64,000 nucleotides of DNA, from NCBI GenBank assembly GCA_050273025.1, contig CP158635.1:3720001-3784000 (forward strand), written 5' to 3'. Under the pieces are notes generated by a model. The model had not been told where the DNA came from, ran no database searches, and was given only the letters and a program-made list of their open reading frames with translations. Below, piece by piece: positions 20,535 through 64,000 of the stretch (position 1 is its first letter; the number at the start of each line of letters is the position of its first letter). This DNA is from Cenococcum geophilum. Its lineage: Eukaryota. The translations under genes were made by a program, and so were the position numbers.

Positions 20535-20570
20535 GGCGTTGGCGGTTTGGTGCGTATGGCCCACCATACG
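20535..20570 (-). repeat. Right terminal inverted repeat
   Basis: Reverse complement of 1214-1249. Confidence 0.93.
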
Positions 20571-25784: not shown

Positions 25785-26224
25785 GGCAGCACGGTAAACT
25801 CAGATAGTTATTGAAGACAAAGAGATATAGTAGAGATATTTAAGAAGCCTTATGGAGAGGAAGGATGATCAATACGCAGAGGAAACTGTGTTTGTAAAGT
25901 CTTGAGAGCAAGGGCAATCATTTCTATATAAAACAGAGCCTTACGACATGCACCTCGCATCTATAGCAGAAGCCCCGAACTCTTTTCTCTTAGTTGGGTG
26001 AGCTTATTCTCGTATTCAAGCCTCTCAGCAATACGATCAGATTCGCCGAGTCACACGCCACAGCATAACGTTATGCTTAACCCCGCACAACGTTATTACC
26101 TGCGAAGAGGCCGCTTTTCGAGACTTTCCTCAGAATCTTTATTACTTTGAATTGGTAGAATAACGTTTTATCATATTTACATTGACAGCACACAGGGATC
26201 CATCTTGACCACAATAACGGCGTG

Positions 26225-27346
26225 ATGTCTTCCCCACTCCCAACACCAGGCGACCCCGATCGAAAGCGTGTTCTCAATGTCCTTGCTCAGCGAAGATACC
26301 GTACGCCACCATACATCACCTTGCCTACCCAAAATTTTTAACATTGACTCTGCCGGCCTTAGGGCAAAGAAAACGCGAAAAGCTTGCGGCGCTAGAAGCC
26401 AAGGCGAAGACGGTATTACCTCAAGCATCAACACAGCCACAGAACCCAAGTAATTCTGCCGCAACTACATCGTTACCGACCCCATCATCAACCCAGTGTG
26501 AGCCACAAAATGAGAGGCTTGATGCTGAAAATACTCCAATGCAAACTCCTGCCCCAGAACTTGAAGTATCCAAAGGAGGATTCAACGTGGATCTCTTTGG
26601 TTCACTTTACAGTGATGAGGATTCCATGCTGCTAGGTTTTGACCAATATACAACTTGTCAAGCAGGAGAGATAGAGTTGAGTCCGTATGACGCTACGTAT
26701 TCTAAAGATGGTATATTCAATTCTCCTAATTCTCTTCGTTGCACAGAGCTAGAAAGTGCTACATCTAACAACAACAGTTGGATGTCACGGAACCAACCCG
26801 GCAATTCAAGAAGTCCGTCCTGAAACTCCACTTAAAGAAGGGTATTCAGCGTTCTCCTTCCCACTCTCGAATGATGCCGCCCTAGAAGTCCCAGTCCTCA
26901 ATGCCCTCCGTGCCGGACTGACTGTCGCCAATCTCCTCGACTGTGCAAATTCCATATTTGACCCGTTCGCCCTCCGCACGCTCACTCCGCAACCCCAATC
27001 CGTCCCTCTGAATCTACAGCCAACGGACGTGCAGCAGCGCATCCCGCATCACCCGCTCTTGGACATCCTTCCTTGGCCCTCCGTCCGCACAAAGCTCATC
27101 TGTGCCCTCTCGCTACCAGCACCACTGCGACCACCGCCTGCTCGCGACTCGATGGCCATTATGCAAATCGTTTTCGATATCGATGATACAGCCGAAGGAT
27201 TCCGTGTCAATGGAATGAACGAGTTTGATGGCAAGACATGGGAAGTTGGCGAAGCGTTTTTCCGGAATTGGTGGTGGGCTTTGGATCGGGAGGTCCTGGA
27301 GAATACGAACAGATTAAGAGCGCAAAGAGGCGTTGGGCTAGGCTAA
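26225..27346 (+). CDS. bZIP-like basic region + DUF3425 domain protein (putative transcription factor)
   Basis: ATG 26225; RKRVLNVLAQRRYR|QRKREKLAALE across intron 26301-26362; intron 26711-26777 (GTATAT..CTAAC..CAG) joins into PLNLQPTDVQQRIPHHPLLDILPWPSVR...WEVGEAFFRNWWWALD...TNRLRAQRG. Confidence 0.88.
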
Positions 27347-27365
27347 GCTGCATGTATGATATGTT

Positions 27366-40500: not shown

Positions 40501-41464
40501 CTTAGCGGGCCATTTCCACGTAGATGTATTATTTGGGTTCTTATATATAAGCTCTAGGCCCTGCTTAATAAACTTATAGGCTTTATCCTCTAGTATATCT
40601 AAGATATAAAGGATCTGGGACTAAACTATATTAAAGTAGTCTTAGTCGCGGTTAAAGACTCCCTTAATCTTAATATGCCAGGTTTTAAAATTAGCTTATT
40701 ATTTTAGCGGGGTACCTTTTCCGCTAAATATTAGTGGGTCTTTAGACCTCCGTTTTTTCTACTAGGTTACTACCGTTATTATAGAGGTTAATTATTTTAG
40801 AATGGCGATAGTCTCTACCTAGAAGTTAATAGTTCCTATTTAGAAAGCAATAAGGGCACTAAGGTTTTTATTAGCTTTCTTATTAGCGGTGTTTGTGTTA
40901 TATATACACTATAGTTCTACTTTAATATTGTTAAGGAACTTATTAGTATAGTTGGTAAGGGTAAGGTAAGCTTTGCTAGGCTTAAAGGTCTTAGGGTATA
41001 GTAGGGAGCGGCGGATTGTCTACGCGATATTAGGGTATATCTATATAAAGAGGTCTGTAAAAACGTCGCGGGGGTTCTAGGTTTTGGCCATTTTAGCATC
41101 ATTAGTATCGCCTATCTAGGTACTAGGTAAAAACTAAGGATCGTTCTAGGACTGTGCTAGGGACATATTAGTTTTAGTAGAGGCGCGTATAGGTCGCGAT
41201 TGCTCTAGGGTAAAGGTTAATTAGCTAGGGTATGGGGAATTAGTAATCGCGACGGGGCGCAAATTAAAGATACTATAAACTATTACAGTGCTGTAATAAA
41301 GTAGACTAAATAACTACGTTATAGTATAAAGAGGAGAAGGTAAAAAGGGGGTATTATATATAAATAGTAGGGCCAGCCGCCAAGGCACTAGTGGTGGGCT
41401 AGCTAATAGTAGAAAACAGTACGAGACAGTATGGAACAGTATGCGTTAGGTCAGTGCCGTGACA
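34554..41464 (-). mobile_element. Full-length Gypsy LTR retrotransposon (Gypsy-2), RIP-inactivated
   Basis: 184-bp LTRs 34554-34737 and 41281-41464; TSD CTAGA; minus-strand PPT GGGAGAGAGGAG beside 34738; RT YL(D)(D)IL ~37610-37625, integrase ISDRG ~36020-36033, protease DSG ~39405. Confidence 0.95.
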
Positions 41465-41602
41465 CTAGAGAAAAGCTTTTCTCTAATGTTTTTCTTTTTC
41501 TAACTCCGTGCCGTCCTCTTAGATTAATAGAATCTTATCCGGTTTTACCTTTATTTAGTAGTCCTTTTAACTATATAAAAAGTAAGCTCTTTAATTACTA
41601 AG

Positions 41603-44600
41603 TGTGACGGCTTATATAAATGCTTCTGAACCGAAGCTTGTAGAATACTATCTTATAAAGATACTAAGCTAAAGAGAAGGAAAAGGGGTCGCTAGAACTG
41701 ATGTAAATAAATATATAGAGTAAGCCGCCAAGGCGCTAGCTTTAGGCGGGCTAATTACAGGTCGGCAGAATATAGCAGAATTTGGCAGGTAACGTGCGAT
41801 AGCGCCGTTACATTACCCCCCTCTTTAAAAGAAAGCCTGCCCTTAGGCTTAGTTAGAAATAGGGTAGCACTAGGCTTATAAACGTAGGATTATAAAATAT
41901 AAGATAAGGAGATAAAAAAGGATATAAGTACGTCTAGACTAAGTATAAAAGGCGGTTGTGGGCTAAGTAGAAGCACTAGGCTAGAAAGGGTAGCTGCTAA
42001 AAGTCTTAGCACAGATCTGACTAATTAGACAACTTTAACCGCCGGTTAAAGTTCCTTAATATCTGAAATTTTACGGTACTTGCAGAAAACGGCCGAATAT
42101 GGCAGAATTTGGCAGACAGCTGTATTAGGGCTTTGGGGCGTTTTTGTCCCTATATTTTTTCGGTAACTTATCATTTTTATTATACTAGCATTCCATCCAT
42201 TTGTCTAGGTACTTTGGGGGTCTAGGCATATTAGGGTATTGGTTATAAAACTCTTTAAGCTTCTAGGGGCAGCCTATAAAGTTTTACGTAGGGTACTAGG
42301 TTGGGTTAGGATTATAGCCCTTCTATTTAATATGGTATTTTAGCGTTCCCCATACTAACTTATAGGCCAGTATTTTATTAACCTCCTATTCGTCGTCACC
42401 GTTTACTTAAACTAGTAGGGGGGGGCTCGTTCTTTTATCTAGGCAATAGGTTATTTATAGCTTTCCGTAACTTATCTAGTAAGAAAATAGGGTGAACCCT
42501 AATTAAATCTAGGAGCTTTATCTTGTATAAGTTGCCTATCTTTTTAAGAACCTTATACGGTTCTACTATCTAATAGTCTAGCTTATAGCTAGGTCGTTTA
42601 GTCTTCTAATTCCTTATTATAACCTAGACTATATTACTAGGGACAAAGTCAGGCTCTTGACGGTGTTTATTTGCCTACTATTTTATTAACCTTTAAGCTT
42701 TTTCTAGGTTCTTGTAGGCTACCGTCTAAACTTCCTCTAATTATTTAGCGTACTATTAGGCCTTAATATAGAATAGCTTCTCTTATATAGTCTAGGGTTC
42801 TTTTAGCCTTTTCTAGTTAAAGCTTATATGGGGTAAGTATCCTATTTCTAGCTAAATTAGGGCAAACCCTATAGAGTTATAGGGTAGGGTTACTTACGCG
42901 TAGTTTATTAAGGGTAATAGTTTAGACTAGTTATCTTAGAAATAGTTAATAAAGGGCCTAAACCTCTAGTCTAGGTACTAATTTATAATCTCCGTCTAGC
43001 CGTCTGTCTAGGGGTAATAAGCCGTAGAAAGCTTTAGCTTAATACCTAGGATTTAGGTAAACTTATTCTAGAAGGCCGATATAAACTATAGCCTATAATT
43101 AGATATAATAGTATCTAGTAGACTGTAGATTTGGTAGACGTAATAGACATATAGCTAGGCTACCTCTTTAGCATTAATGTTTTTATAATAGGGAATTAAG
43201 AACGGGCGTTTACTAAAGTGGTTAACTATAACTATAATTATATTATATCCGTTACGGTCCCTAGGTAGTTTATAAAAGTCTATAGAAATATACTATTAAG
43301 GGCGCTCTAGTATCAGAAGTGGCTTAAGTAATCCTAGGGTTTTATCCCGTAGGATTATAGCTCTCTAGTAGTCTTCGCAGTTTCATATATATTAATTAAT
43401 ATCCGCAACTATTTTTAGCTAGTAGTAGCGGCAGTTAATAATTTTATAGGTTTTATTCTTGCTAGGGTATGCCGTAGAGACTTAGCAATAAGCTTTACGG
43501 ATTAGTTTAGTCCATAAATTGTTAACGTTAGGGACTATAAGCCGCTCCTAATATAGGAGTAATTCTTCCTCCATCTTAAAATTAGGGTCTCCCTTTACAG
43601 CTTATTTATAGAGGGACCTTAGGGCGTTAGCCGTGCAGTTTACCGTTAGGAGGCGGTTAATTAGCCTTATTAGCTTATCTAAGGACTCCTCTATTAGTGC
43701 TAGCTCGTTTTACTAGGAGTCTAGCTCCTTAAAGATCTATAGGTCGAGCTATTCTAAATAGAAAAGGGCGCGCGTCCGATATTAGGTCTTTAGCTTATCC
43801 TAAGGTCCTATATCTTATTCTCTTTAGGTTAAGGTATTAGCCTTAGAGTTTTGCTTACTAGAATAATATATAATTATAAAGAAGAACTAGGAGAGTATTT
43901 CGGCCTACTAGGCTTATTATTTAGTAAGCTACTTTATAGTTATAAAGTACTCTAAGGCTTTATAATCTATATATATCCTAATCCGGGAGTTTGTACCTTT
44001 AAGCTCTACGCGCTATTAGAAGAGTAATTAAATAATAGCTAGCATTTCTTTATTATATACTTTATAGTTACACTTAGCTAGGTTTATTATTTTTAAGAAG
44101 AAAGTAATAGGGTACTATTTACTGTTTAGATATAACTGTAATAGGATTTCTGCTATAACCCTATTAGAGGCGTCCGTTTCTAATATTAATTTAAAGTCTA
44201 GGTTATAATAATAAAGGATTAGGGAAGAGATAAGCCGATCCTTTATCTCTTTAAAGGCCTCTATATAGCTATTATTAAAGATAAAAAGCATATCCTTCCT
44301 AATTAGTTATATAAGAGGTTTTACCACAATTTTATAGTTGTGGATAAACTAGTAGTAGAAGTTATAAAAACTAAGGAAGGATTGGATTCCTTTTACTATA
44401 TAGAAGGGCTTCTAGTTATAGATTGCCTCTACCTTCTTAGGGTTAACCTTAATTCCTTCTATAGTTATAATAAACCCGAGGTATTTTATATATTTTACCC
44501 TAAACTCGCATTTCTTAATATTAACTTATAAGCCTGTGTTTTGTAGTCTCTCTAGGACCTTCTTAATATGAACTTAATACTTAAGTTCGTTGTCTAAGTA

Positions 44601-47600
44601 TATAAGAATATTATCTAGGTATACCATGTAGAACTCGTTAAGGTAATTAAAAAGAATGTTATTTATATACCTTTAGTATATAGCCAGTCCGTTTATTAGT
44701 CTAAAAGGAAGAACTTTATATTTATAGGAACTATAATAGGTACGGAATATTGTTAAATCTTTAGATACGGGGTCTATTTTAATTTGGTAGAAAGCCTAGC
44801 GGATATTAAGTTTAGTAAAGATTTTTGCCTAGCTTAGATGTATAAGGGTCTTATTAATTAAAAGAATAAGATACTAATCCTTTTAAGTAATAGCGTTTAG
44901 CTTTTAATAGTTAATGCAAAAGCAAAGGCCTTTATTAGGCTTTTTTATAAATAGAATAGAAGAAGTAAAAGGGGCTTAACTTAGCTTAATAAACCCTTTA
45001 TCCAGGTTATTAATTAAGTACTACTTTATTGCTTTTAGCTTATCCGTTAATTATTAGTAAAGGGGGCTATAACTTAGTAAGTTATTAGCTTTTAATTAAA
45101 TCTTATAATTGTATATCTGGTAAGGGGGTAACTTATCTAAAGCCGCCTTTAAGAATGTATCCTTGTAATTTATATAAATAGTAGAAAGAAGGCGTTTAAC
45201 TAGTTCCTCGTCGGTCTCCTTAGCTAGCTCTTCCTCCCTATTATTAATAATTTGGTTAATCTTGTATAGGCTTGTTATAAAGACCTTATTATCCTTCCGG
45301 TATATATTAAAGTAGAATACTATCGCGCTAATTACGGCGATATCTATGGCGGGGGGGTTATATAATAATAGGGGCGTACGTAACTTTATATACTTTTAAG
45401 GTATTAGCGTTATTATTACTCCTTTTAGCTCCTGTTGCATTTTTTAGAGGTTATCCCTTATATCCTATTAATGCGTTCTTTTCTATACTGGTTAGATCTA
45501 CGCGATTTAGACGTTATCTATATTACTATCTATCCCGCTTTTATACGTAGAGTTTTCTTTAAATATAGCGCTTTAGGAGAGTATCTTTATTAGTATGAAG
45601 TTCTTTCTAGCTTTGCGGCGGGCGTCTTCTTAAGTAAAGGCTAGGTTATGGGCCTGGACATCCTACTAGTAGGTAGGGTTAGCCCTTACGGCTAATGTCT
45701 TATAGTTGGTTCAAATTTCCCTAATAAAAGAGGGCAACTTTGGTTTATCCTCCGGCTAGATAAACTATCTTTATTATACGTTTAGCTAAATATTAAAATA
45801 GGACATCTATTTTTGTTTAAGGATTATATCGTGGGACCCTAGGTCTAGGATACAAAAAGGGATACTATATTAGCGTCGTCCGTTAAAAGTAATATGCAAC
45901 TTTAAAACGTAGGTAACCGGTTAACCGGCTTGGCCGTTATAGCCTTTTACCTAAATAGGCTTCTCTAGTCGGATGGCTTCTATATTTAAAAATTTGGCAA
46001 TATTATTTATATAGGTAGTATTTATAAAGGCGAAGCTATTTGCTCTAGTATTAATAAGGGCAGTTATATTTACTTTATATCTATTTTAAGATACTATATA
46101 TAAAACGGTAAAATGCTTTTTACCTATTAACTAACTAAGATTAATCTTTTTAAGATTAATAGGGTACCCTAGGGGAGTTTTTCCCTAGGGCTCTTCTTTT
46201 TCTAACTTGTTGGACGTTTCTTCTTCCTCTATTTCCTTAATATCGCTTATATCCTTTAGCTCTAGGCAAGATAAGGTAAAGTGACCCTCCTTATTATAGT
46301 TATAGCAAGTAGCCAAGGCAGGGTTAATTAGGGTATTGCGACGAATACTAGTTAGGGGTATGGTACGTAGCTAGTTAGGTAAGGCCCGCTAGTGCGTAGA
46401 TATAACCGCTTTTAGTATAAGGGCGGTTGTGGCTTATCTTCCTACTCTAGCTCCTGTAGGTGTAGCTAATGAGTTTTAATCGTTCTGGGGTCGCTTCTGC
46501 CGATTAGGGTAGGCGTTAATTCGCTTTAGTTCTAAATCTAGTAATAGGTAATAAGTTGCGAGTCTGTTATACGTTAGAAGGTCGTTTAAGGTTATAGTAA
46601 TCTTCTTTTATAGCCGAATTATTAGCTTATTGTATAAGTCTAATTAGTAGTTCTTAAGGGGAACCTAGCCTTTTCCTATAAGGTATAGGAATTAAGTCTA
46701 GAATTTGGTAAAGGGTTAGTTTAGTTTTATTATTAGGCGATTATAGTTATACTAGGCGTCCTATACTTTATTTAGGTTAATATAGATAGCTGCTAGGTGC
46801 CGTATTATTTTATTAATAGATGTAAATCGGATAGGGGAATTGTCCTTAAACTTGGCTTAAAGGTGCTGTTAGGCGTCCCTAGTGGTTTAACCAAAAAGGT
46901 AGAGCATTTTGGCTTCCTCGGAAAGGAAATAGTTATAGTTAACGCGGAGTTTTCCTTATACTTAAATCCTCCAATTCTTAAAGGTAGGGTCTATTCTGTT
47001 GGATAGTAGTTAGGGGTTAGGGAGCTTAACGGACTTTACTTACTTTATTATTATATCCGTACTCCCTAGTATATTGTATTTAGTAGAGTGAGTATATTAG
47101 CTAGGGCTTTAAGAAGGGGAAGCTAGGCTATTTTATAGGGCTGTAAGGCTCTCTAGGATCTTTTATAGGGTCTCTTGTATATTCCTTGCCTTAAGATAAT
47201 TGGCTTCCTAGCTGGCTGTAAGGGCGCGAATCTGCTCGCGTATATCTATAACGTTATTATTATCTTTAATTTCTAATCCTAATTGGATCTTAGGTTCCTC
47301 TTAGGTAGAGGCAGCTCTCTTAAATAAGCTTACTTTGGGTACCATCGTTAGCTTCCTAGGGTTTATTAGTATTATATACTTTAGTTTTAATTCTAAGGGT
47401 ATAGGTCTAGTCCTATTTAGCTTATAAGGTAGGATATTATCTAGGCCTTCCTAGGCAATGTAGAGTTGTTTTGGTGTCTGAGTATAGCGCGTTAACGCGT
47501 CATTGTAGACGAAGTTTTTTTTTCTTTTAGGGTGGGATATTATTAAGGCCTTCCTAGGCAATGTAGGGAGAGCTTAGTATAATGTAACGGCTTGTATAAA

Positions 47601-47792
47601 TGCTTCTGAATTAAAGCTTATAGAATGCTATCTTATAAAGATACTAAGCTAAAGAGAAGGAAAAGGGGTTACTAGGACCGATGTAAATAAATATATAAGG
47701 TAAGCCGCTAAGGCGCTAGCTTTAGGCGGGCCAATCACAGGTCGGCAGAATATAGCAGAATTTGGTAGGTAACGTACGATAGCGCTGTTACA
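41603..47792 (-). mobile_element. Full-length Gypsy LTR retrotransposon (Gypsy-3), RIP-inactivated
   Basis: 210-bp LTRs 41603-41812 and 47583-47792; TSD CTAAG; PPT beside 41813; chromodomain ~42240-42400, RT YLD(D)IL ~44605-44622, gag zinc knuckle ~46270-46310. Confidence 0.95.
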
Positions 47793-47854
47793 CTAAGGGC
47801 CTATTTATAGGAGTTGCTATATATAGGATAAGTATATACTAGACCCGTACTAAG

Positions 47855-50258
47855 CAGTGTGGTTTTCGATAACTTATTATTAATAAGATTAATTAATAAT
47901 CGTTATTAACGACAATCGATTATTATCGATTTTTATTAATAATTCTTACCGCTTAACCAAAATTTCTGAACTCCTTCCTTCTCTTTAATTATTTTGTACG
48001 AATTATGGATTCCAAAATTAATTTATCTCTTCCTGCGCCTTTAACTACCTATAATTCGGTTAAAACTAAATTAAAAGGAAGGGGTAGATCCGCTTATATA
48101 ATATAGGTCTATACTTAAACAGCATATAATAAAGAGAATTCTCAGCTTAAATTCTATATACACTATACAGCGACACTACTATATGGCACTTCGGTTAGTA
48201 CAAATATGCGTGGACATCTTAAGTTAAAGCATGGAATATATATTGACTAAACTCCAGGTCCAATTTAAGAAGAAACTGTCCGCTAACTATAGCAACTTTA
48301 TACCTAAGTAGAGTCTTTAGGCCAAATAAAAGAGATTAATACTTAAGTCTACCGAAAACATCTAAATTAGGATATAATTAATGAGGCTTTAATTACACTA
48401 ATTGTTATACGAAACCTTCCTTTTTAAGTTATTAAATGGCCTAAATTTTATACTTTTTACTAAGTGCTTAATCCAGAATCGTCCGACTTTATAACTATAG
48501 CACACTTTTAAGTTATAAAGAAGATTAAGCAGTCTTGGTAGACTTATAAAGACATTATATAAAAGAAACTTTAGTTAGTAGTATTAAGTATTTATCTTTT
48601 ACTTAATATCTAGATCTCCCTAAATAGGCTCCTTCTTCTAGGGATCTGCGCCTACTTTGTTAACCGTAGTTAAGAGAAGCGCTTAAAGGCCCTCCTTATA
48701 CTTTATACGGTAGCAAACTATAGCGGAAACGAGTAATTCGCTACTCTTCTCCTAGTCCTTAAGAACTATGGTATTATATAAAAGCTTAGGTCTATCGTTT
48801 GTGATAACGCCACTTTAAATGATATACTTTATTGTACGGTAGAAGCCTATCTTTAGAAAGAGGAGGATATTAAATAGGATTCTACGTATTAGCGGATCCG
48901 CTATACTAGTTATATTATTAATTTAGCTATATAAGCCTTTCTATTTTATAGTCTAATTAAAATAAAGTAACTTAAGTCGTATAATAAATAAGAAGGAAAA
49001 GGAGAGATAGTAGATAAAAAGGAGAAATAGGCAACCTTTTAGGTTATGGGACCACTTAGTAAGCTTTATAATATTGTTATATATATCCGCAATTCCGCTA
49101 GTTATATAAAGGAGTTTAAAGATCTAGCGGAGAGAATAATTTTATTTAATAATTATATAAAATGGAATAGCTGGTTTTAAAATGCTGGCTGTAGCCAATT
49201 AAAAGGCAGGAGCTATTAATACCTACGCTAAGAACTACTTTGCTACGCTTTAGGTAGACTATCTTTCTTTAGAGGACTAGAAACGGCTTCATATAATTAA
49301 GGAATTCTTTTAACTGTTCTATAGAGCAACTTTAGAGACTTAGGGTAACTATATAACAATTAATAGTATACTCTTTACTATAGATATTATTGTTTAGTAC
49401 CCTAAAGCCGCGCTTATAAGTAAACTTCCTTCTAGATTAGATAATATTAATACTATATAATAGTCTGAATATGCTTTTAATAAGGAGTTTAACGCTTAAA
49501 TTAGAAAGGGGTGAGAGACCTTTAATAAGTACTATAGTAAAACGGACGACTTACTACTTTATACTACCGCCCTTATTCTTTATCTAAACCGTTATATAAA
49601 GTATATTAAGGCAAACTGGAAAGTAAAGTAGGTTAAGCCTATATTAAAAAAGGTTAAAGAGCTTTAGGAGTCCTACTAGGAAAAAGCTCCTACTTCTCTA
49701 AGTCCTCTATTGTATAAAAGGAGACCTTAGGAGTAGAAACTTAACGTATTTAATTGGATTGCTTAAAAGCTAGGGAAGTATACTCGACTAGTAAGTTAGG
49801 ATAAGTACTAAAATTATTATAATAGGGAACCGTACGATATTAGTAAGATGCCGGCGCTTAAATAGTAGTATTAAGATTAATAAAGAAAACGTTGGCTAAG
49901 GTTATTATATATAGCAATTAATATTCTCTTAATTCTAGCTATAAGCGATAAACTAGAGCGAGTCTTTTTAGGGGGATATTATATAGTATTATAGGAAAGG
50001 GCGCAGATAGGAGCAGAAAATCTTAAGAGGGTAGAGTGTTTAAAACATTGTAAACGAAGTGGTATTTTAGACGAATAATATCTAATATTAGGCAACTATT
50101 AGGGCCTTTTTTGGAAGCCTTCCTCTAAATTCCCTTTGTAAATTAATTAGCCTTAGGCACGTACTATAATGCTAAGTAATTATTAATAATTATTAATTAT
50201 CGACCAATGATAGCGATTATCGATTAATGCCTTATTGATAGCATTGAAAACCACACTA
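47855..50258 (+). mobile_element. hAT DNA transposon, RIP-inactivated
   Basis: TIR CAGTGTGGTTTTC / GAAAACCACACTA; 8-bp TSD GTACTAAG/GTACCAAG; subterminal ATCGAT/ATTAAT repeats; BED-finger remnant ~48150-48235; dimerisation motif AI(D)ILLILAISDKLERVF ~49913-49967. Confidence 0.93.
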
Positions 50259-51455
50259 GTACCAAGACTAGCTAGGTTAATGGCGGGCTATACGGCTAGT
50301 ATTATAGGAGTTATAGGTTATATAAAGGTATTATAGGCTATTTTTGTGAGGTAAAAGGCTCTATACTACCTAGCCACAGCACAAACCCTAAAAGGTAAGC
50401 GAGTGACTAGCAAGATGCTAGGTATAGCTATGCGGAACAATATATATAGGTGAGGTGACTTTATTACCTAATAGTTTTTATATTACCTATAGTCTAATTT
50501 AAGGGGTTTTAGCTTTTAATGGCTTAGCCCATACTTTAATTTAATAGAAGCTTTAATTAATAACTGGCAAATAGTCTATAAGTTCTTTTAATATCTGTAT
50601 AGTAGTAAAAACTAGTAGTATAACTCGCTATAGATCTAGGGTAAGCCTATTAAAGAGGTCTAGTAGTAAGTCTTCTTAGGAAATTTATAAAAGGTTTAGT
50701 TAATAGAATAGGATCTATTAGTAGCTAGGTAACTAAAATTCCAAGCTAAAGGCTAGAAGAAGGTAGAGGAAAGAGTATATCTATATATATAGCGCTAAGC
50801 CCCTAGCTAAGCCCCTAACTAGGGTTTATAATAGTGCTGTAATAAAATTTAGGCCTAGCTAGCTAGGTATAAAAAGCGGGTCTAAAGGCTAAAAATGTCT
50901 CTATTATTTTTATTATTAGGCCCTTATAATTAAGATAAGCGTTTTATACTAAGGGGTTCTTGTAAATAAAAGATAAGCAGTTAATTATCTCCTTTTTATA
51001 GAGAATAAGGTTTGCTTAGTCCTTAGTATACTATGGATATAAGTGCGTCTAGGTGTCCTTACTAGTGCGGCCGAAGATATAGGCTATTTTAGCTTAGGTA
51101 GTATAAAAGTAGTTAATATTAACTTTAAGCTTATCCTGTAATTAAAGCTTCTAGTTATTAAATATAGAGTTAGCTCTATTTATAATTAACGGGGGGTCCG
51201 TAGCCTTTACAGACCGTAATAGTGCTATACGTTAAGATAGGGCCTTAAGGACCGTAGTGAGCCTCTAAGTATCCGATAATTTATTACTAGATATAGGGGT
51301 ATCTCTAGTTTTAAGTAGCTCTTATAGCTATTTAATTTTAGTATTAGCTGCCGTAAGCCTCTTTTAGGGGGTTATTAACTAGAAAAACTAGATTAGAAAA
51401 GAAGGATATATATATAGATTGACCTATAAAGAAATAAAGCTATATATATACAGTA

Positions 51456-53232: not shown

Positions 53233-56200
53233 TATTAGCGACTTAGTTAATTAAGACATAAGCATAGCAAAAGGGTCGCGCAAGCCTATATAATTAGATT
53301 GTCTATAAATAAGAATCTAAAGCTAGGGAAAGGAAAGGAGAAGAAGAGTAGCGCCGTTTAGTGTTTTATAAGATCTTTGCGTTACGTGATCGCAATATAC
53401 AGCAATCTATGGCAACTTGCCGGTGCGAAGTTTTGCCAAGTTCTACCAAGTTCTGCTAGTGCCGTAATATTACCCCCCCCTCTAAAAAAGCCTACCCTTA
53501 GGCTTTATTGCTAAAAGTCTTAGTAAGAGAATCTAACTAATTAGATAACTTTAACCGCCGGTTAAAGTTCCTAGATATCTTAACACCTTATATAACTAAG
53601 AAATTTCTAGGGCATTTTTATCCTTATATTCTTCTAGTAGCTTATCGTCTTTATTATACTAGTACTCTATCTACTTATCTAGGTACTTTAATAGTCCGGG
53701 TTTATTAGGGTAACGGCTATAGAACTTTTAGAGCTTATAGGAACTACCTATAAAGTTCTATATAGGGTACTAAGTGGGGTTTAGGTTATATCCTTTCTAA
53801 CTAATACGATACTTTAACGTTCCCTTTATAAGTTTATAGGCTAGTACTTCTTTAATTTCCTACTTATTATCGCTATTAACTTAAATTAGTAGGGGAGGTT
53901 TATTCTTTTATCTAGGCAGTAGGTTATTTATAGCTTTCCGTAGCTTATCCGGTAAAAAAATAGGGTAAACTTTAATTAAGTCTAGGAGCTTAACCTTATA
54001 TAAGTTACCTACTTTATTAAGAATCTTATACGGTCCTACTATCTTATAGTCTAGCTTACGGCTAGGCCGTTCTATCTTTTAGTTCTTTATTATAATCTAG
54101 ACTATATCGCCTATAGTAAAATTAGGCTCGCGCTTATACTTATTCGCCTACTATTCTATTAATTTCTAGGCCTTTTTTAGGTTTATATAGGCTACTTTCT
54201 AGGCTTCTTCTAAGCGCTTAGCGTACTACTAGGCTTCCTTATAAGATAGTTTTTCGCGTATAGTCTAGGGCCCTTCTAGTCTTTCTTAGTTAAAGCTTAT
54301 ATGGGGTAGGTAACCCATTTCTAGTTAAATAGGGGCAAATCTAGTAGAGTTGTGGGGTAGGGTTGCTTGGGCGTAGTCTATTAAGGGTAATAGTTTAGCC
54401 CAGTTATCCTAGAAGTAGTTAATAAAAGGCTAAAGTCTTTAGTTTAAGTATTAATTTATAATCTTAATTTAACTGTCTATCTAGGGGTAATATACTATAA
54501 AAAGCTTTAGCTTAATACCTAAGATCTAGGTAAACTTATTCTAAAAGGCTAATATAAACTACGGCCTATGGTTAGATATAATAGTATTTAATAGTCTATA
54601 AATTTAGTAAACGTAGTAAATATACAGCCGGGCTGCCTCTTTAGTATTAATATTTTTATAACAGGGGATTAAAAACGGGCGCTTGCTAAAGTGGTTAACT
54701 AGGATTATAACTATATTATATCCGTTATAGTCTAGAGGTAGCTTATAAAAGTCTATAAAGACATATTACTAGGGGCGGTTAGGTATTAGGAGGGGTTTTA
54801 ATAATCCTAGGGTCTTATCTCGTAGAATTATAGACCTATAGCAGTTATTGTAGTTCCGTATATAGCGGTCAATATCTATAATTATTTTAGGCTAGTAGTA
54901 GCGGTCGCCAATAATCCTATAGGTCTTATTTTTTCTAGGGTGGGCCATAGAGACCTAGGTATGTGCTTTAGCAATAAGCCAAGTCCGTAAATTCTATTCC
55001 TCTACTACTACTAGCCGTTTGTAGTGCTTAAGTAGTCCACTTTTAAGGGACTATAGGCTAGAAACGTTCTTTGCCTTTTCGCGGTACTTCTATAGAGAAG
55101 GGGCTGTACGGTTTACCTATAGTAGTTTATTAATAAGGTCTAGTTCTATGGAGTTAATAGGGTATATCTTAGCATCTAAAGGGTCTGTATTTAGTTCTGC
55201 CTATATTTAGGAGTTAAGGTGCTCTAGTTATAGTAGCGCTTAGGTTTATAATAAGATCTTTACGGCTATCTGGTTATTTATATCCTGTTTATACCTTATA
55301 AGAACGTCTACACGGTTAGTAGCGCCTAGCCTATATATAATTAGGAAGTTAAACTAAGATAGGGTATCTACCTAGCGCGCCTATTGGGCTATAAGGGCCT
55401 TTATTATTATAAAATATTCTAAGGCCTTATAATTGGAAACTACCTAGATAGACTTAGGGGTGCCTTCTAGTTAGGCTCGCCAGTGCTAAAAGCTAAAGAT
55501 AATAGCTAGCATTTCTTTATCGTAAATTAGGTAGTTTAGCTTAACATCTACTATAGTCTTTAAATAGTAAGCAATAGGGTGCTATTCTCTATTTATCTGC
55601 TTTTAGGAATAAACGCCAGCTATAACACTATCTAAGGCATTGGTTTCTAGCATTAAGGGTTATTTTAGGTTAAAGTGGGCGAGTAAGGGAGTAGAGACTA
55701 GTCGTTTCTTAAGCTCGTTAAAGGCCTGCCTATATACGGTATTAAAGTAAAAGGGCTAGTCCTTATAGGTAAGTAGGCTTAGTAGTTAGGTAATCCTACT
55801 ATAGTTCTTAATAAAGCGTTAGTAGAAGTTATAAAACCCTAAGAATAACTACACCCCCTTTACGGTCCTTAGGGGTACCTATTAGTTAATTATAGCTGTC
55901 TTTTCTAGGTCTGTCTTAATCCTATTTATACTAATAATAAACCCTAAATACTTTATACGCTTAATACTAAATTCTAATTTCTTAATATTGGCTTAGAGGC
56001 TAGCTTCCTAAAGCCGTTATAAGACTTTATAAATATGCTCTTTATATTCTAGTTCGTTTTTAAAGTAGATTATAATATTATCTAGGTATACTATATAGAA
56101 GTTATTAAGGTAGTTAAATAGTACGTTATTGACCCGAGGTACGAGTGGTCTATATATTCGGGTCCTGGATTTCAAACCTCCGCCAAGCCAGCTTCTGATT

Positions 56201-56289
56201 GGTTAGAAAGCCAGCTTCTCATTGGTTAGAAAAAAAGTTGCGCGCGGTAAGTTATGGCAGAATCCACGTGACGAACTTCAAAACATTGG

Positions 56290-58345
56290 GCTCTACAAAC
56301 GCTCTGCACAAAGCTCCGTACGAAGCTTTGCGAAAGCTCTACCAAAAGCTCTACCAAAAGCTCTACCACAAGCTCTACCAAAAGCTCTGCCAAAGGCTCT
56401 GCCAAAGGCTTTGCAGCACCTCTGCCCACCTAGTGTACCGGCCATGCAGTACATGGAGCACGCTGTGCGCAGGGGTCTAAGGGGGTCTCCCCTTTGAAGC
56501 TCTGCTCGAAGTTTTACTCGAAGCCCTATACGGAGCTCTAAAGCTTTACTAACACGCAGCGCTAATATACTAGGAAGTTTCTGCAATCGGCCATATAACC
56601 GCCCATACGGTCAATCGCCGTACAATTGTCTCTACGAACGGCTCTACGAACGGCTCTACAAACGTCTACACGATCGCCCGTACGAACGTTCATACGATCG
56701 ATTAACCAAACGCCTATACAATCAATCAGACGCCCGTATAAACGTCTCTACGAGCGTCTACAAACGTCTCTACAAACGTCTACAATCGCCCATACAATCG
56801 TCCGTACGAACGTCTGTACGAACGCCTACACAAACGCCTACACAAAGCTCTGCTCGAAGCTCTACAAAGCTCTACACGAACCTTCGTACGAAGCTCTGCA
56901 AAAGCTCTACTAAAAGCTCTACCAAAGCCTCTACCAAAGCCTCTGCAAGAGCTCTGCCCGCGCAGTAAATAGAGCACGTAGTGCGCAGGGGGGGTCCAAG
57001 GGGGTCTCCCCCTTGAGCTTAAAGCTCTACTTGAAGCTCTACTCGAAGCTTAATACGGAGCTCTAAAGCTCTACTAATATGCAGCACTGATATACAGGAA
57101 GGCTCTATAATCGTCTACACGAACGGCTCTATAAACGGCTCTACGAATGTCTGCATAATCGCCCGTACAAACGCCTATACAATCAATCAAACACCTATAT
57201 AATCGATCAATCAAACGCCCATACGAACGACTAATTAAACGTCCATGCAATTGCCTATACAATCGTCTCTACAAATGTCTCTGCGGTTAATTGCCCGTGC
57301 GAACGCCTGCATGTGGCTCTGCATAAGGCTCTACACGAAGCTCTACCAAAGCTCTACACGAAGCTCTACCAAAGCTCTACATAAAGCTCTACCAAAGCTC
57401 TACACAAAGCTCTACCGAAGCTCTACACAGAGCTCTATAAAAGCTCTATAAAAGCTCTACCAAATGCTCTACCAAAGCCTCTACAAGAACTCTGCCTACG
57501 CGGTAAATAGAGCATGTAGTGCGCAGGGGGGGTCCAAGGGGGTCTCCCCCTTAAGCTCAAAGCTTTACTCGAAACTCTACTTAAAGCTCAAAGCTTTACT
57601 CGAAACTCTACTTAAAGCTCAAAGCTTTACTCGAAACTCTACTTAAAGCTCAAAGCTTTACTCGAAACTCTACTTAAAGCTCAAAGCTTTACTCGAAACT
57701 CTACTTAAAGCTCAAAGCTTTACTCGAAACTCTACTTAAAGCTCAAAGCTTTACTCGAAACTCTACTTAAAGCTCAAAGCTTTACTCGAAACTCTACTTA
57801 AAGCTTAATACAGAGCTCTAAAGCTCTACTAACATGCAGCACTAATATACTAGGAAGGCTCTATAATCGTCTACACAAACGGCTCTATAAACGGCTCCAT
57901 GAACGTCTATACAATCGTCTATATAAACGCCCATATAATTAGTCAATTAATCGATCAATTGCCTATAAACGCCTATACAATTAATTAATCAATTAACTAA
58001 ACGCCCGTACGAACGTCTCTACGAACGGCTCTATAAATGGCTCTATGTATAGCTTTACGCACGGCTCTATAAACGTCTATATAATTAATTAATCAATTAA
58101 TTGCCCACACAAACGCCCGTATAAACGATTAATTAAACGCCTATACAATTGCCTGTACAATCGTCTCTACAAATGTCTCTGCAATTAATCGCCAGAACAA
58201 ACGGCTGTACGTCTATACATCTGCACGTAGCTCTGCGCAAGGCTCTACACAAAGCTCCGCACGAGGCTCTACCAAAGCTCTGCACGAGGCTCTACCAAAG
58301 CTCTATATAAGGCTCTATTAAAGCTCTGCACAAGGCTCTGCCTAA
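56290..58345 (+). repeat. Higher-order repeat: ~520-540-bp modules of AAAGCTCTACC / ACGAACGGCTCT units
   Basis: Anchor GTGCGCAGGGG..AAGGGGGTCTCCCC recurs near 56465, 56981 and 57519. Confidence 0.88.
57551..57797 (+). repeat. 31-bp tandem repeat x8
   Basis: TTAAAGCTCAAAGCTTTACTCGAAACTCTAC; GAAACTCTAC recurs at 57571, 57602 ... 57788. Confidence 0.95.
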
Positions 58346-60996
58346 AGCTTAACCCGTACTGCAAAGCACGACGGAGGTATAGGATTTACGAAACAAATCT
58401 ATACCTACTAGTGTATGCTAATTAAGCTCTATATAATAAGGCTCTAAATTAAAGCTTTGGGTTAATTAATCGGCTTATTAATTATAAACTCGGGTCAAAA
58501 TTTTCGTTGAGGGGTACCAACGATCCGCATGTTTTATATATCGTTAGTATCTAGCTAGTCCGTTAGTTAGTCTAAAAGGTAGTACTTTATATTTATACGT
58601 TCTATAACGGGTCTAAAACGTAATAAGGTTTTCTAATTTAGGGTTTATCCTAATCCGGTAAAAAGCCTAGCGGATATTAAGCTTTATAAAGATCTTAGCT
58701 CTACTTATTCGGGCCAAAGTCTTATTAAGTAAAGGTAGTTGGTAGCGGTCTTTAAGGGTTAAATTATTAAGCTTATAATAGTTAATACAGAAACAAAGTC
58801 CTCTATTTAACTTTTTGGTAAAGAGAATAGGTAAGTTAAAAGAGGCTTAACTAGGCTTAATAAAGCCCTTATCTAGGTTATTAATAAGATACTACTTTAT
58901 AGCCTATAATTTAGCAGTAAATTGCTATTAGAGGGGGCTATAGCTAAGGGTAACCACCTTATCCGGCTTAATTTTAATCTTATAGTTATACGGTCGGTAA
59001 GGTGGGAGTATATTAGACGCTGCTTTAGAGAAGGTATCTTTAAATTTCTAATATTAACGGGGCAGTTTTTGTTCTACTAGCTTCTTATCTATAAGCTTAC
59101 CTTTCTCTTAGGCTAGGGCTTCTTTCTCTTTAATTATTTAATTAATTTTATATAAGCTAGTTGTAAAGGCAACGGTATTAGGCTAAACTAGGTTTTAGTA
59201 GAATCCTATAGCGCTAATATAACAGATATTAACTGGTAGAAGGTCTATAGGTTTCTTTACGGATATTTATTAGGCCGTATTTTGCGGTATAGGGTTTATA
59301 ATCTTCCTTAGCTTACGTTCTATTTTCTATAAGTTATCCTTTTAGTTTATTAGTTTGGTATATTATCTAATATCCCTAGCCTTTCTTTATAGCTATATAG
59401 GGCCTAAGTTCTCTATTAGGGACTTAGCTAGGCTACTACCGACTTCCTAAGTCTTTAGTGTAGGTGGTGTAATATAGGTAGTCTAGGGGCGGCGTAGTAT
59501 ACGGATCTGTTGCGGATTAAGCTATATATCCTTCTTAAAAGCCTAGTCCCTACGCGTTGCATTAGCCTAATAAATAGTATTTATCTATAGCCGTATAAGG
59601 TTTTTTATTATAATACTAATCTCTTTTATAAAGGAAGGCGTTAGGGGCATAGTTTTAGGCTAGATAAGCTGCCTATTTTATATATTAAGCTATAAGCCTA
59701 AATAGGCTAGCTATTTTCTCCCTAAGATTATATTATAGCTTCTAAGGTCTGTAATTAAGAAGGGGATATTATACTACCTTTATCTATTAACACGGAGGTA
59801 AATCCGTAAGATAGTTATAATAGGTAGTCCTATCTATCTGTTATAACCGCAAATAGGGACTAGTTTAGGCAGTTCTTTAAGGGGTGTATTTAAAAAGTTA
59901 GCTAGTTTTATAGCGCACTTTATATTAATTAAGGTAAAGGCATTTACTCCTAAGTTAGCTAAAGTAGAGGTTAAAACTTAATATCTATTATAAAATAAAG
60001 TATAAGGGATAGTGCAGCTTCTTCTACTAACTAGCTGACCTAGATTAATATATAATATATTAATCCCTTTTAACCCTAGAGAGAAGTCTTCCTTTAGAGT
60101 TCCTCTTTTTCTAGCTCTATACTATCCTCCTAAATTAATAGAACCTCGTTTATCTTTACCTTTATTAGGCAGTTCCTTATAGGGTGGCCTATTTAACTAT
60201 ATAAGAAGTAAGCTCCTTAATTACTAAGGGCCTATATATAGGGGTTATTATATATAGGCCGGGTATATACTAGGCCCGTAATAGGGGTAGCTATACGGCT
60301 AGCTATTAGGTTAACTATAGGAGTTGCTAATTATACTAGGGCACTACGGGCTGTACTTATAGTACTTACGGCCTAGTTTGTAAGGTTTCTAGTTTTTAGC
60401 TAGTTAGCGCGTGCCTTAATTTAATAGAGGCCTTAGTTAATAGCTAGGCAATAGTCTATAAGTTCCTTTAACGTCTATACTATAGTATAAGCTAGTAATA
60501 CGGCCTATTATAGGTCTAGAGTAAGCTTATTAAAGAGGTCTAGTAGTAGGTTTTTTTAGGGGATCTAGGCCTATCTAGCTAGGTATAAAAAGCGGGTTTA
60601 AAAGGCTAAAAAGGTCTCCGTTATTTTTATATTTAGGCTTTTATAGCTAAGGCAGGCGTTTTATACTTTAAAAGGGTCTTTATAAATAGAAGATAAGTAT
60701 TTAATTATTTCTTCTTTAGAGATAAAGGGGTTTACTAAGTCTTTAGTATATTGCGGGCGTAAATACGTCTAGGCGTCTCCACTAGTACAGCCAAAAATAT
60801 AGGCTATTCTGGCTTAGGCGTTAGGGAAGTAGTCTATATTAACTTTAAGCTTATCCCGTAATTAAAGCTTCTAATTATTAAATATAGGGTTAGTTCTATT
60901 TATAAGTAGTAGGGAATTCGCGACCTTTACTAACCGCTTTAGTACTATATAGGCCTTAGTAGGTCTACTAAGGCACTAGGATAGGGCCTAAAGGAC

Positions 60997-63900
60997 TATA
61001 GTATAGGAGGGTACGACCTCTCTAAGATAGGAAAGTTACAGTGCTGTTAGTTAGTCTTTTGGTCAGTCTATTGGTCGGTTACAATTAGTTAAAATTAAGC
61101 AGTAAGAAGAGAAAGAAAAGAGTGTATTTAAGGAGAGTTGTGTATCTATTAGTGTTGCCTAAGTTATTAAAGACTCTAAGGGCTTTAAACCGATCTATAT
61201 AACTTATAGAAGGCCTAGGCTCTCCCAAAGCTATGCTTAATTTAGATGTTGAATCTAGGGGCCAAATTATACTACTACATACCTCCCCTACCTAAGTTGT
61301 TGTCCCCTAACGACTTCCAAAACTTTAAAACTCCTTATCTTTAAAATGAAGGCGTGGTAGGTAATTATATACGCTCCTTGCCCTTACTATAAACTCAAGA
61401 TAGTAAATAAGGAGACTCCGTTCTAGTTAAATGAGACCATTCTCATCTACTTGGCTAAGCAGTAAGAAAGACCTTAGACTGGCGGCTCTTAGATAATATG
61501 GCTCTTTCGCGCCCTTCTATTTGCTCAGTTCTATCCTATAATTCTTTAGGCAACTCTATATAACTCTATCCTTCTTTAATAACTAGGGGCACTCTACTTA
61601 GATCTACCGTAATAGCTAAAGGATTAATTCTATTATTAATGCAGTAGAAGTAAGAGCGGCTATTAAAGCGTTCTATTTTAGTTATATATATTAGCCTAAA
61701 CGCATCTTTATAATTCTTAACGGCCCTAAGACGGTAGAAATATATCTATTTCCCAACTTTGTTCCTATTACCATTAAGAAAAAAGTTATAATCTTAAATT
61801 ACCGCTAGAGAATCCTATTATTGTTTACCGAAAAGGGCGTCAGATAGAGCGCTGGTAGCTATAAGCTTAACTACTATAGGGAAGTGATATAAAATTATGC
61901 TATAGAGATTAGCATGTCCCGACGGCGTATAGGGCGGCGCTCTTAAGTCTTAGTGCGCATCTGCCAACTCTACCTAAGTACCTCCTTTAGTGACCTTAAG
62001 GTTATTATAATCGTCCTAAATACCAACAAATTATAGTAGTATTATTTGCTAGGTTCTAGTTAAAGGTCCTTTTACTCTATAAGAAAGGTAAGGTATAGTT
62101 ATACGCACATCTCCTTTCTTATATGGCTGAGCTACCTAGTCGGTCGCATACTTTTCTACGTCTTTAGTAGTCTAGTTTTAGTTAGAGATCTTATAAACGA
62201 ATCCATTGCCCTTAGTTAATCCTCGCGCCTTAAGATCCTCCCACTATAATTCTAAGTGGTAATACATGCCGGGTAGGATAATTGTGCAGTTATCCTTAGT
62301 CTTATTATCTAGAGAAATGCTCCTTTAGATTATATCGGCACCGTATCTACTTTTAAGGAGCGAGGGAATATTAACGTTAATGTAATGGAAAGCTGTAGAG
62401 TCTCCTTTAACCGCGAATTTTATATAATAAGGGTAGGAAATAAGTTGCCACTAGCTGTTAGGCCTAAGAGCGCAATAGAGACAATAATACTAAGGGTCTT
62501 ATCTTATTAGCTGTTAGTAAAGACCGTAGACCATCGTTCTTAATTAGCTATAATTTAGCCGCCTATTAATTAGACGCTAATAGTGGCGGTATATATATAT
62601 TTCCTTATTAATTATTACCGAGATACTAGAATCCCACTACTATCTAAATACGTTTAAAATTACAGATCCTTCTCGCTGCCATACTTCTTAGTCTTTTAGT
62701 AATATTATCCAATTAAGCAAAGCCTCTCTGTTATATAAAAACCTTAGTGCTAAGTTATAAATAAACTTATACGGTCCTAAGAAATCGGATAAACTAGAGG
62801 TTTATAAGCTTTTCTAAACTAAGAGTACGTAGTAGAATCGGTCTTTATAGTGCTAAGGTAGTTATAAGTGTAATATATTAAACAGAGTCTATAATATAGT
62901 GCGGTATAGTTTAAACCCTTTATTACTAAACCTATACGTCCTCTTATAGCTTGCGTATATATCTAGTAGACCTTATATATCTCTAGATTAGAACTAGCTG
63001 CCTTATACTAACTACGCAAGAGCTTTATAACCTTAGTTAGTTTAATTTTAGTAATTCGGTTTAGGGACGCCTTAAGATAAGTAGGTACGTTATCCTTATA
63101 GTTATACCCTTATTTTGTATGGAGTACCGCTATAATATCTGCAGCCTCCTTAATATACTCCTTATTATCTCCCAGCTTAATAACGTTCTTATTAAATATT
63201 AATGCTACCCCTAGCCCTCCTACTTCCGGGTAAGTAATCGTTAGCCCTTTTCTTAAATTCCTCCTTAATAAAGATACTGGTAGCTATGGGGGCGAGCTAA
63301 TAGGCGTTTTAGCCGCGAGAATGCTCTCGTTTATGGATAATAATGGCGAGTTAACTAATATAGGTGATCCTTGTTGGGATGGGCTTAGTATAATACTAAC
63401 GCCTCCTCCTTAAATAGGTATTAATGGCTAAAAAGCTAAGGGATTTATTATATTAGAAGTATGTCGTAAATATATTCGTAGTATAAGAGCTAAGCTCTCT
63501 CCTGCTTATTAAATTCCGATATCAGTGACCTCTAGTCTTACAGTAGTTAGTCTCCTACTTCTTAGTAGTAGGTCCTCGTTTAAAATAAGGAAACCAGTTA
63601 AGTGTCTTTCTAAGCTATAATTATTTACTACCTAGTCTAATACCGCCCTTCTTGGTATTTTTAGCGCGAGCGCAAAATCGGTTGGCTGTAGTTAAGTAGT
63701 GTTCTTAATGCCGTGTTCTGGATATTTGAGCCTATTAGTTAGGGCCTTATTAACTCGTGCCGTTACTTTATAAAGTAGGTGGACGGTAAGCTTTCGGGCG
63801 GTAAAAAGAAAGTAGTAAGAGACCGCGTATTTAAGTGGACCGTTAAGAACACCTTATCTCTAGGACTTTCGGATAGTTTCTCTAGCTTTATTACACTAAT

Positions 63901-64000
63901 TTCTTTAATCTTTTACTATCTTACTAATATTAGAGATGTCCTTAAAGATTAATAAGAACGCGTCCCTTCCTAGAGATGCTTATATAGCCTATTATCCTAG
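60997..64000 (-). mobile_element. 3' part of an LTR retroelement (LTR 60997-61279, PPT at 61280-61292) continuing beyond the window
   Basis: TATAGTA (RIP'd TGTAGTA)...TACTACA termini; minus strand GGGGACAACAACTTAGGTAGGGGAGGTA immediately precedes TGTAG, like the other Gypsy 3' ends here; similarity to host gag stops at ~60996-61002. Confidence 0.7.
61443..64000 (-). pseudogene. RIP-degraded large ORF with a C-terminal PhyH-like 2OG-Fe(II) dioxygenase domain
   Basis: One frame ~62760-61443: LRTMVYGLY*QLIR*DP*YYCLYCALRP..LISYPYY..GDSTAFHYINVN (FRHID)..II*RSISLD..CTIILPGMY..KGDVRITIPYLSYR (PHLPHG)..TPSGHAN..ALSDAL; the upstream frame continues after a shift at ~62760. Confidence 0.7.

Follow-up and report, generated by a model that had tools for sequence, protein, structure and literature searches.

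The 3' end of a Gypsy element in the window

The DNA considered here is a stretch of 64,000 nucleotides from Cenococcum geophilum (assembly GCA_050273025.1, contig CP158635.1, positions 3,720,001 to 3,784,000), which we call the window. At its end the minus strand holds a damaged open reading frame (ORF3), a polypurine tract (PPT) and a long terminal repeat (LTR), in that order. Comparison with relatives identifies 61002-64000 as the last 3 kb of a ~10.6-kb Ty3/Gypsy retrotransposon that was destroyed by repeat-induced point mutation (RIP). The element runs off the window end at 64000, so there is no second LTR within the window. We argue that this is very probably the 3' end of a RIP-killed Gypsy element whose family keeps, as a third gene useful to the element, an oxygenase of the phytanoyl-CoA hydroxylase (PhyH) class.

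The initial annotation had described an LTR and a Gypsy-style PPT here, with the outer end of the LTR at 60997. The LTR and the PPT are real. The minus strand from 61420 to 60940 matches the 3' ends of two relatives, L041 and L042, base for base, from the tail of ORF3 across the PPT to the far end of the LTR. The window LTR can also be aligned to the 5' LTRs of both. The outer end is at 61002, however, so the earlier boundary was 5 bp too far out. The window LTR begins TGTAGTAGTA at 61279, where copies without RIP read TGTGGTGGTG, and it finishes ...CCTCCTATA at 61002, where those copies read ...CCTCCCACA. The termini TGTAG...CTATA are the RIP-mutated form of TGTGG...CCACA, and the element has both the TG...CA ends and the abutting PPT by which Ty3/Gypsy elements are recognized.

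Contigs from four sequencing runs were placed on the window at 80% likeness or more. Thousands of contig pieces with 80-99% likeness cover the element region, and they do so in all four runs and in every bin. In run X1 nearly all variable places are transitions (658/690). The claim that ORF3 is multicopy and has suffered RIP like the rest of the element is borne out by these counts. The contigs of other copies have loose ends at 61002 and their flanks agree poorly beyond it, as expected of divergent insertion sites. The summed contig depth in run X1 is ~41-45 thousand over the LTR and ~10-33 thousand over the internal part, a roughly twofold difference in depth, which is not the same as copy number.

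Intact relatives between LTRs

Metagenome contigs of the Joint Genome Institute (JGI) were scanned for relatives, and 79 loci were retained from the 94 found. Self-comparison for direct repeats covered 58 of the 79, the 21 omitted loci being mostly short. Flanking direct repeats were found in 14 of the 58. In nine of them (L002, L007, L022, L023, L041, L042, L048, L051 and L053) the repeats are 127-357 bp long and ~10-11 kb apart, and in all nine the 3' repeat starts just after ORF3. The homologues do lie between LTRs, which had been proposed as a check on the initial annotation.

The best example is L022, an intact ~10.6-kb element in a locus of 10869 bp. It reads LTR, gag-protease, reverse transcriptase-RNase H-integrase (RT-RNaseH-integrase), a 988-aa ORF3, PPT, LTR. 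Its second frame has RVT_1 at residues 329-469, RT_RNaseH at 566-666, Integrase_H2C2 at 792-845 and rve at 863-955. The termini are TGTGG...CCACA, the PPT abuts the 3' LTR, and a 4-bp target-site duplication (TSD), CTAC, stands at 123-126 and 10745-10748. With three open frames, near-identical LTRs and a target duplication, L022 looks recently active in the sampled community. Intact members of the family have this layout: gag-protease, RT-RNaseH-integrase and a separate third ORF of ~990 aa, all between the LTRs. After the 5' LTR there is a conserved TA(C/T)TTTATGGCATTCCACGTGGGGACGACGG in L022 (401-440), L041 and L042. It is a candidate primer-binding site ~7 nt from the LTR.

Ten LTR pairs were inspected for TSDs. 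Four have a 4-bp duplication: CTAC in L022, CTAC in L041, GTAG in L042 and CTAG in L051. The TSD is unclear or absent in L007, L023, L053 and L058, and in L002 and L048 the contig stops within the 3' LTR. The initial annotation had predicted a TSD of AGGAC at 60992-60996. This prediction fails, since the relatives duplicate 4 bp and the window flank is CTAT. Taken together, the four duplications and the window flank hint at a preferred near-palindromic target, in a sample too small to judge.

With the L022 proteins as probes, 34 loci were testable for pol upstream of ORF3, leaving aside the other 45 loci and the window. Gypsy pol lies directly upstream of ORF3, on the same strand, in 19 of the 34.

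The remains of ORF3 in the window

The L022 ORF3 aligns across the window without gaps in two segments (tblastn). Residues 108-503 match 63979-62792 with 62.9% identity over 396 codons, and residues 505-988 match 62789-61338 with 61.6% identity over 484 codons. A single frame of 62789-61600 also accommodates eight intact homologues (tblastn E 1e-55 to 1e-72), and the coding-like stretch of 2.5 kb noted in the initial annotation is real. The window frame has 45 in-frame stops in 880 codons and one frameshift near 62790, and its own TAA stop sits 27 nt before the PPT. Nucleotide differences from the L022 ORF3 are G>A or C>T in 516 of 659 cases. The window copy itself is dead.

Base composition agrees. 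In 61280-64000 TpA/ApT is 1.70 and (CpA+TpG)/(ApC+GpT) is 0.45, compared with 0.78 and 1.25 in the GC-normal stretch 20001-33000. Such indices point to RIP, and 61280-64000 is RIP-like by them.

An intron was considered for the change of frame near 62790. It was set aside for a 1-nt deletion, since some other copies have an extra base at 62789-62791 in the contigs of the sequencing runs and the two tblastn segments lie in different frames. Stop density by frame singled out the minus strand, with ~63900-62850 in one frame and ~62550-61350 in another. Counting TGA stops says nothing about the coding frame here, TpG being depleted. None of the six frames of 61280-64000, read with X at stops, matches a Pfam family, and a phmmer search of PDB sequences with the window fragment gave one chance match only.

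The catalytic residues can be followed through the mutations by codon mapping against L022 (Table 1). The initial annotation had proposed a facial triad of His-x-Asp and a distal His, to be recovered by reversing RIP. The codons are exactly as claimed: they are the mutated His640, Asp642 and His741 of L022. Strands of QGS, ILPG and GDVR type had been read around the triad as well. They are present in five homologues from short ENA contigs, which have Gln or Trp where the window has stops. In a second motif of the middle region, the L022 residues C399, C401, C445 and H448 have become TAT, TAT, TAC and TAT.

Table 1. Features of the window and of the intact relative L022 (L022 positions are those of its own locus)
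Feature	Position	Strand	Basis or remark
3' LTR, 278 bp	61002..61279	minus	aligned to both LTRs of L041 and L042; contigs of other copies end at 61002
Polypurine tract GGGGACAACAACTTAGGTAGGGGAGGTA	61307-61280	minus	homologous tract directly before the 3' LTR in L022, L002, L041 and L042
Expected half of 4-bp TSD, CTAT (may be RIP-mutated CTAC)	60998..61001	minus	inferred from the 4-bp TSDs of relatives
RIP-inactivated ORF3, residues 108-988 of a 988-aa protein, with TAA stop at 61337-61335	61335..64000	minus	runs past the window end
Frameshift between residues 503 and 505	62789..62792	minus	tblastn segments in frames -1 and -3
His-x-Asp codons: TAC (Tyr) for His640 at 62384-62382, AAC (Asn) for Asp642 at 62378-62376	62376..62384	minus	codon mapping against L022 ORF3
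Distal His codon: TAT (Tyr) for His741	62079..62081	minus	codon mapping against L022 ORF3
Conserved Arg751 codon, ten residues past the distal His, now a TAG stop	62049..62051	minus	codon mapping against L022
CxC...CxxH motif, middle region, all four now Tyr codons	62957..63106	minus	codon mapping against L022
GC-normal islands	1-2000, 20001-33000, 56001-58000		base composition
L022 LTRs	127-404 and 10470-10748		99.6% identical
L022 ORF1	471-3515		aspartyl protease (Pfam)
L022 ORF2	3497-7105		RVT_1, RT_RNaseH, Integrase_H2C2, rve, SH3_Tf2-1 (Pfam)
L022 ORF3	7456-10422

The ORF3 protein family

A word-based protein search with the window frame 62510-61800 gave 268 candidates. Five of these are homologues, from short ENA contigs, and they are 65-75% identical to the window frame. 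A Pfam search with the five returned only chance-level rows. A profile was built from these five and the window and scored against 1.84 billion representative proteins. It found 1141 proteins at E <=1e-3, 711 at 1e-10 and 231 at 1e-30. The full-length members are 800-1000 aa long, and the profile match falls in their C-terminal half. The named members belong to Sclerotinia borealis, Candelina submexicana, two Coleophoma species, a Chaetothyriales species and Peziza echinospora. All of them are annotated "hypothetical protein". Given this range, the family covers several classes of Pezizomycotina.

Conservation was judged on 52 full-length homologues, with the numbering of one of them, P0006. 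Four residues are nearly invariant: H555, D557, H655 and R665. By analogy with this class of enzyme, the Arg after the distal His would bind 2-oxoglutarate (2OG). The same His, Asp, distal His and Arg are present in the intact ORF3 of L022, and together they make up the iron triad plus Arg expected of the PhyH class. A further motif, C320-x-C322...C359-x-x-H362, is invariant or nearly so.

Predicted fold and enzyme class

The fold was examined with an AlphaFold model of P0006, built with the 52-homologue alignment (mean predicted local distance difference test score, pLDDT, 84.5). In the PDB, every top Foldseek match is a PhyH-class enzyme (E 1e-6 to 1e-5; probability 1.00). Among them are DUF1479 GIG2, YbiU, GriE, SnoN/K, FtmOx1, EctD and proline hydroxylases. 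VIA-align comparisons to representatives give the same answer. YbiU has Z 21.1 (276 aligned, root-mean-square deviation 3.0), GIG2 Z 19.1, human PhyH Z 13.4 and PHYHD1 Z 12.8. NgTET1 (Z 8.6), ALKBH3 (8.4) and AlkB (8.1) are far below these rows. Predicted structure and conservation together show the C-terminal half of ORF3 as a PhyH-class 2OG/Fe(II) dioxygenase with a double-stranded beta-helix. The initial annotation had named this fold and class from the window alone, and the P0006 model and the 52 homologues, which keep HxD...H, agree with it.

One structural match is of a different kind. A chain of the trypanosome RNA-editing RESC complex (8fnc_14) matches residues 443-753 of the P0006 model with Z 14.5, which places a PhyH-like fold in an RNA-binding machine.

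Sequence searches point in the same direction as the fold. Pfam PhyH is the only family matched, in 14 of the 52 homologues at E 0.01 or better, with a best E of 1e-8. Among 13 homologues scanned separately, three score 18-19 bits for it, the cut-off being 22. PF07350 (DUF1479/Gig2-like) has no match at E 0.01 in the 52 homologues. The Atlas neighbour clusters, found with a language model, are PhyH and Gig2-like, with PF07350 on 16-41% of their members; we take this as a lead only. ORF3 resembles the DUF1479/Gig2-like proteins in fold and is not filed as a member. The TET/JBP and AlkB families have no Pfam match in the 52 homologues, and ORF3 is not filed in either class.

By predicted structure and conservation, the whole protein consists of an N-terminal helical domain without a recognized fold, a disordered linker, the CxC...CxxH motif and the C-terminal dioxygenase. 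The helical domain was modelled alone, using residues 1-260 of the L022 ORF3 (pLDDT 81.7). It has no convincing fold match, the best being VIA Z 5.4 over 41 residues and Foldseek E 1.7.

Selection on ORF3

ORF3 has diverged in step with pol. Identity to L022, given as ORF3/pol in percent, is 94/94 for L002, 71/70 for L023, 69/70 for L041, 74/74 for L042, 42/47 for L007, 33/48 for L043 and ~31/35 for a second RIP-mutated family. Between L022 and L002 the ratio of nonsynonymous to synonymous substitution (dN/dS) is 0.083 for ORF3, 0.086 for pol and 0.197 for gag. Since the divergence of ORF3 tracks that of pol and its dN/dS is about the same, ORF3 is under selection as one of the element's genes rather than carried along by chance. 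In L022 the ORF3 frame opens two codons ahead of its first Met and 351 nt past the pol stop. This implies that ORF3 is a separate cistron. In live copies it would be an active oxygenase made from its own start codon. Selection on it equals that on pol in strength, and it would therefore probably help the element to multiply.

The ORF3 tree and copies outside Gypsy elements

A maximum likelihood tree of ORF3 was made with 64 rows, after 18 loci were dropped for matches of less than 300 aa. Together with L022, L002, L023, L025, L070, L041 and L042 the window forms a clade of eight that has full support. Pol lies upstream in five of them, three are untestable and none is free-standing. The closest relative of the window on the tree is L041, at 74% identity.

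The neighbours of the loci without pol vary. They include Helitron genes (L027, L030), a Plavaka transposase (L035), an OrsD-plus-DEAD-helicase gene (L039) and ordinary repeat-domain proteins. As an observation in its own right, the dioxygenase family tends toward transposon-rich DNA even outside Gypsy elements. Two loci, L004 (1418-5254) and L012 (4526-8389), have homologous ORFs of ~1280 aa just upstream of ORF3 on the same strand (E 9e-37), and there is a fragment in L017. This ORF matches no Pfam family, and the L004 copy has no usable Atlas match. It may mark a second carrier or a two-gene module.

These results bear on the earlier proposal that the ORF was multicopy cargo rather than a host gene. 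It is right in that the gene is borne by the element. It is wrong if cargo means a recent pick-up, since ORF3 is an old selected third gene that has co-diverged with pol. It is also limited by the family members outside Gypsy elements. As a whole the interpretation is supported: each of the three conditions that the initial annotation named as refuting it was checked, and none came out against it.

Weighing the explanations

Several observations weigh against a Gypsy element with an oxygenase as its own gene. The window has one LTR and no gag or pol, and for this reason its membership in the element rests on homology to relatives. In 15 of the 34 testable loci the 3 kb ahead of ORF3 contain no pol; their ORFs, of 621-1170 aa, are intact and have other mobile-element genes as neighbours. 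One of the 19 loci with pol upstream (L066) has the pol of another Gypsy family. Copies borne by LTR elements and free copies are intermixed on the ORF3 tree, and the label 'pol upstream' changes at least six times over well-supported branches. A single acquisition is not established, because the tree forces these changes, and the pol tree has too few outgroups lacking ORF3 to test it. One old acquisition followed by escapes and several separate captures are both possible from the trees. A simple pattern search of the leader and the pol-ORF3 spacer of L022 found no canonical fungal splice signals. On the side of the enzyme, its activity rests on predicted structure and residue conservation, most homologues fall under the Pfam PhyH threshold, and a profile of the 52 homologues against PDB sequences finds no dioxygenase (best E 0.12).

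One can imagine that the window holds a RIP-mutated copy of a free-standing gene that happens to lie beside an unrelated solo LTR. The single LTR and the missing gag and pol would fit this. It does not make sense of the junction of ORF3 stop, PPT and LTR, however, which matches L041 and L042 with equal spacing. In the clade of the window ORF3, every testable member has pol upstream. Variation in other copies runs together on both sides of the junction, and 61002 is the one place where coverage breaks off. We give this scenario almost no credence. One can also imagine that the dioxygenase domain has lost catalysis and is retained as a scaffold for binding only. The similarity to Pfam PhyH is weak, enzyme activity is a prediction, and the trypanosome chain shows that a PhyH-like fold can sit in an RNA-editing complex. 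Against this, the residues of the iron site (His-x-Asp and the distal His) and the Arg hardly vary over 52 diverged homologues, and the LTR-borne L022 has them all. We consider a dead scaffold very unlikely.

A more serious alternative makes ORF3 a selfish hitch-hiker that spreads on mobile DNA of several kinds and brings the Gypsy element no benefit. The free copies beside Helitron genes, the Plavaka transposase and the OrsD-helicase gene speak for it, as do the common ~1280-aa ORF of L004 and L012 and the intermixing on the tree. Against it, the dN/dS of ORF3 equals that of pol, and the two genes diverge in step from 94% to ~31% identity. The position and spacing of ORF3 before the PPT are conserved too. 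Since decay or loss is the expected fate of a gene that does nothing for its retroelement, the hitch-hiker is improbable, although less so than the other two scenarios. We therefore retain the Gypsy element with a useful PhyH-class third gene as the explanation of 61002-64000.

What the oxygenase acts on is another matter. Our guess, held tentatively and with the odds against it, is that ORF3 oxidises a macromolecular mark or a protein and so blunts host silencing. The initial annotation had suggested that it could act against 5mC or RIP silencing. By analogy with its structural neighbours, a metabolite or peptide substrate seems at least as likely, because those neighbours are mostly small-molecule or amino-acid hydroxylases. 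The extra ~400 residues could target a macromolecule. A wider scenario, no more probable than the guess itself, is that a Gypsy lineage across the Pezizomycotina has long kept a PhyH-class counter-defence oxygenase. The target would be a silencing mark, on chromatin or as methylation of DNA or RNA, or else a host silencing protein such as a part of the RIP or heterochromatin machinery, and the gene may have moved between Gypsy elements, the 1280-aa-ORF module and Helitron or Plavaka neighbourhoods.

Comparison with known systems

The env-like third ORFs of Ty3/Gypsy elements and retroviruses lie after pol, directly before the PPT and the 3' LTR. ORF3 occupies this retroviral env position and ends just before the PPT, but it is predicted to have an enzyme fold and has no resemblance to an envelope protein. 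The brtn gene of BcGypsy1 reportedly runs antisense and is a different gene from ORF3. It is described as an additional ORF of that element, cited from Zhao et al. (PMC8365987). For fungal LTR elements, the available text of one survey goes no further than chromodomains and "complex transposons" (PMC3248453). The literature searched, which left subscription journals, Repbase and Dfam outside, holds no description of a Gypsy element with a PhyH-class third gene, and the initial annotation likewise knew of none as LTR cargo.

The nearest analogue is found in orchids, where Ty3/Gypsy elements carry an ALKBH5-like domain for N6-methyladenosine (m6A) RNA demethylation; the title of that report calls the acquisition recent (PMC9289625). 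There too, by the part of the report available, an LTR retrotransposon of the Ty3/Gypsy type encodes a 2OG/Fe(II) dioxygenase with an HxD...H site. Those elements are from plants and their enzyme is of the AlkB class, whereas ours are fungal and PhyH-class (AlkB-type chains have Z ~8). Here the gene is also a separate ORF of ~990 aa after pol, and it has diverged as far as pol. A second parallel lies within the fungi. TET/JBP dioxygenases ride fungal DNA transposons and Helitrons, and the accessible part of the source says they are thought to serve the fitness of the element (PMC12730594). These are also fungal mobile elements bearing their own 2OG/Fe(II) dioxygenase. However, the carriers are class II elements or Helitrons with a TET/JBP fold, while the carrier here is a retrotransposon (NgTET1 Z 8.6 vs YbiU 21).

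Among the enzymes themselves, the best structural matches are the DUF1479/Gig2-like proteins, which are YbiU of E. coli and Yersinia and GIG2 of Candida (4rgk, 2dbi, 6akz). They align over 276-279 residues with Foldseek E ~1e-6. They are stand-alone proteins of 400-450 aa, whereas ORF3 adds ~400 N-terminal residues with the helical domain and the CxC...CxxH motif. YbiU appears in 'y-ome' papers, which, in the portions consulted, deal with E. coli genes without experimental evidence of function. The phytanoyl-CoA hydroxylase family itself (PF05721; 2a1x, 3obz) shares the fold and the iron triad and is the sole Pfam family matched. It differs in that most ORF3 members are below its cut-off, and ORF3 is much larger and borne by a retrotransposon.

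Setting of the element in the window

AT-rich blocks with RIP (0.21-0.40 GC) alternate with GC-normal islands (0.41-0.53 GC) along the window in an isochore-like layout. No second copy of 60900-64000 was found inside the 64 kb by blastn, purine/pyrimidine-reduced blastn or tblastx (best E 1.7). The flank 60900-61003 resembles 51180-51259, the sole match by purine/pyrimidine-reduced blastn, and the summed contig depth of 60500-60967, just outside the LTR, is about ten-fold that of the element. Judged by this depth and the look-alike, the element appears to be inserted into another RIP-mutated repeat. The minus strand of 37000-49000 holds at least two further RIP-mutated Gypsy copies, with pol motifs legible by eye (YLDN..., TDAS, ...TDGxTE). 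They are of a different family and have no ORF3; the best match of the window to the L022 pol has ~23% identity, at 6524-7693. An Rfam scan of the whole window returned no families.

Significance

Persistent extra genes in LTR retrotransposons are rare, and each points to a pressure on the element. The arrangement described here adds to the mobile elements that bear a 2OG dioxygenase of their own, and the PhyH-class gene in a fungal Gypsy element is the new part. It would be the third independent recruitment of a 2OG/Fe(II) dioxygenase by mobile elements, next to the TET/JBP genes of fungal DNA transposons and the AlkB-like domains of plant RNA viruses and of Gypsy elements in orchids. For annotation, it accounts for ~2.7 kb per element of this kind that would otherwise be labelled unknown repeat. 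More than 1000 clusters of fungal "hypothetical proteins" gain a context from it, and their multicopy status a likely reason. It also provides a biological lead on a branch of the PhyH class, YbiU/DUF1479, that is uncharacterised. In fungi whose defences include RIP and heterochromatin, an oxygenase that is conserved and selected much as pol is would be a candidate counter-defence or replication factor.

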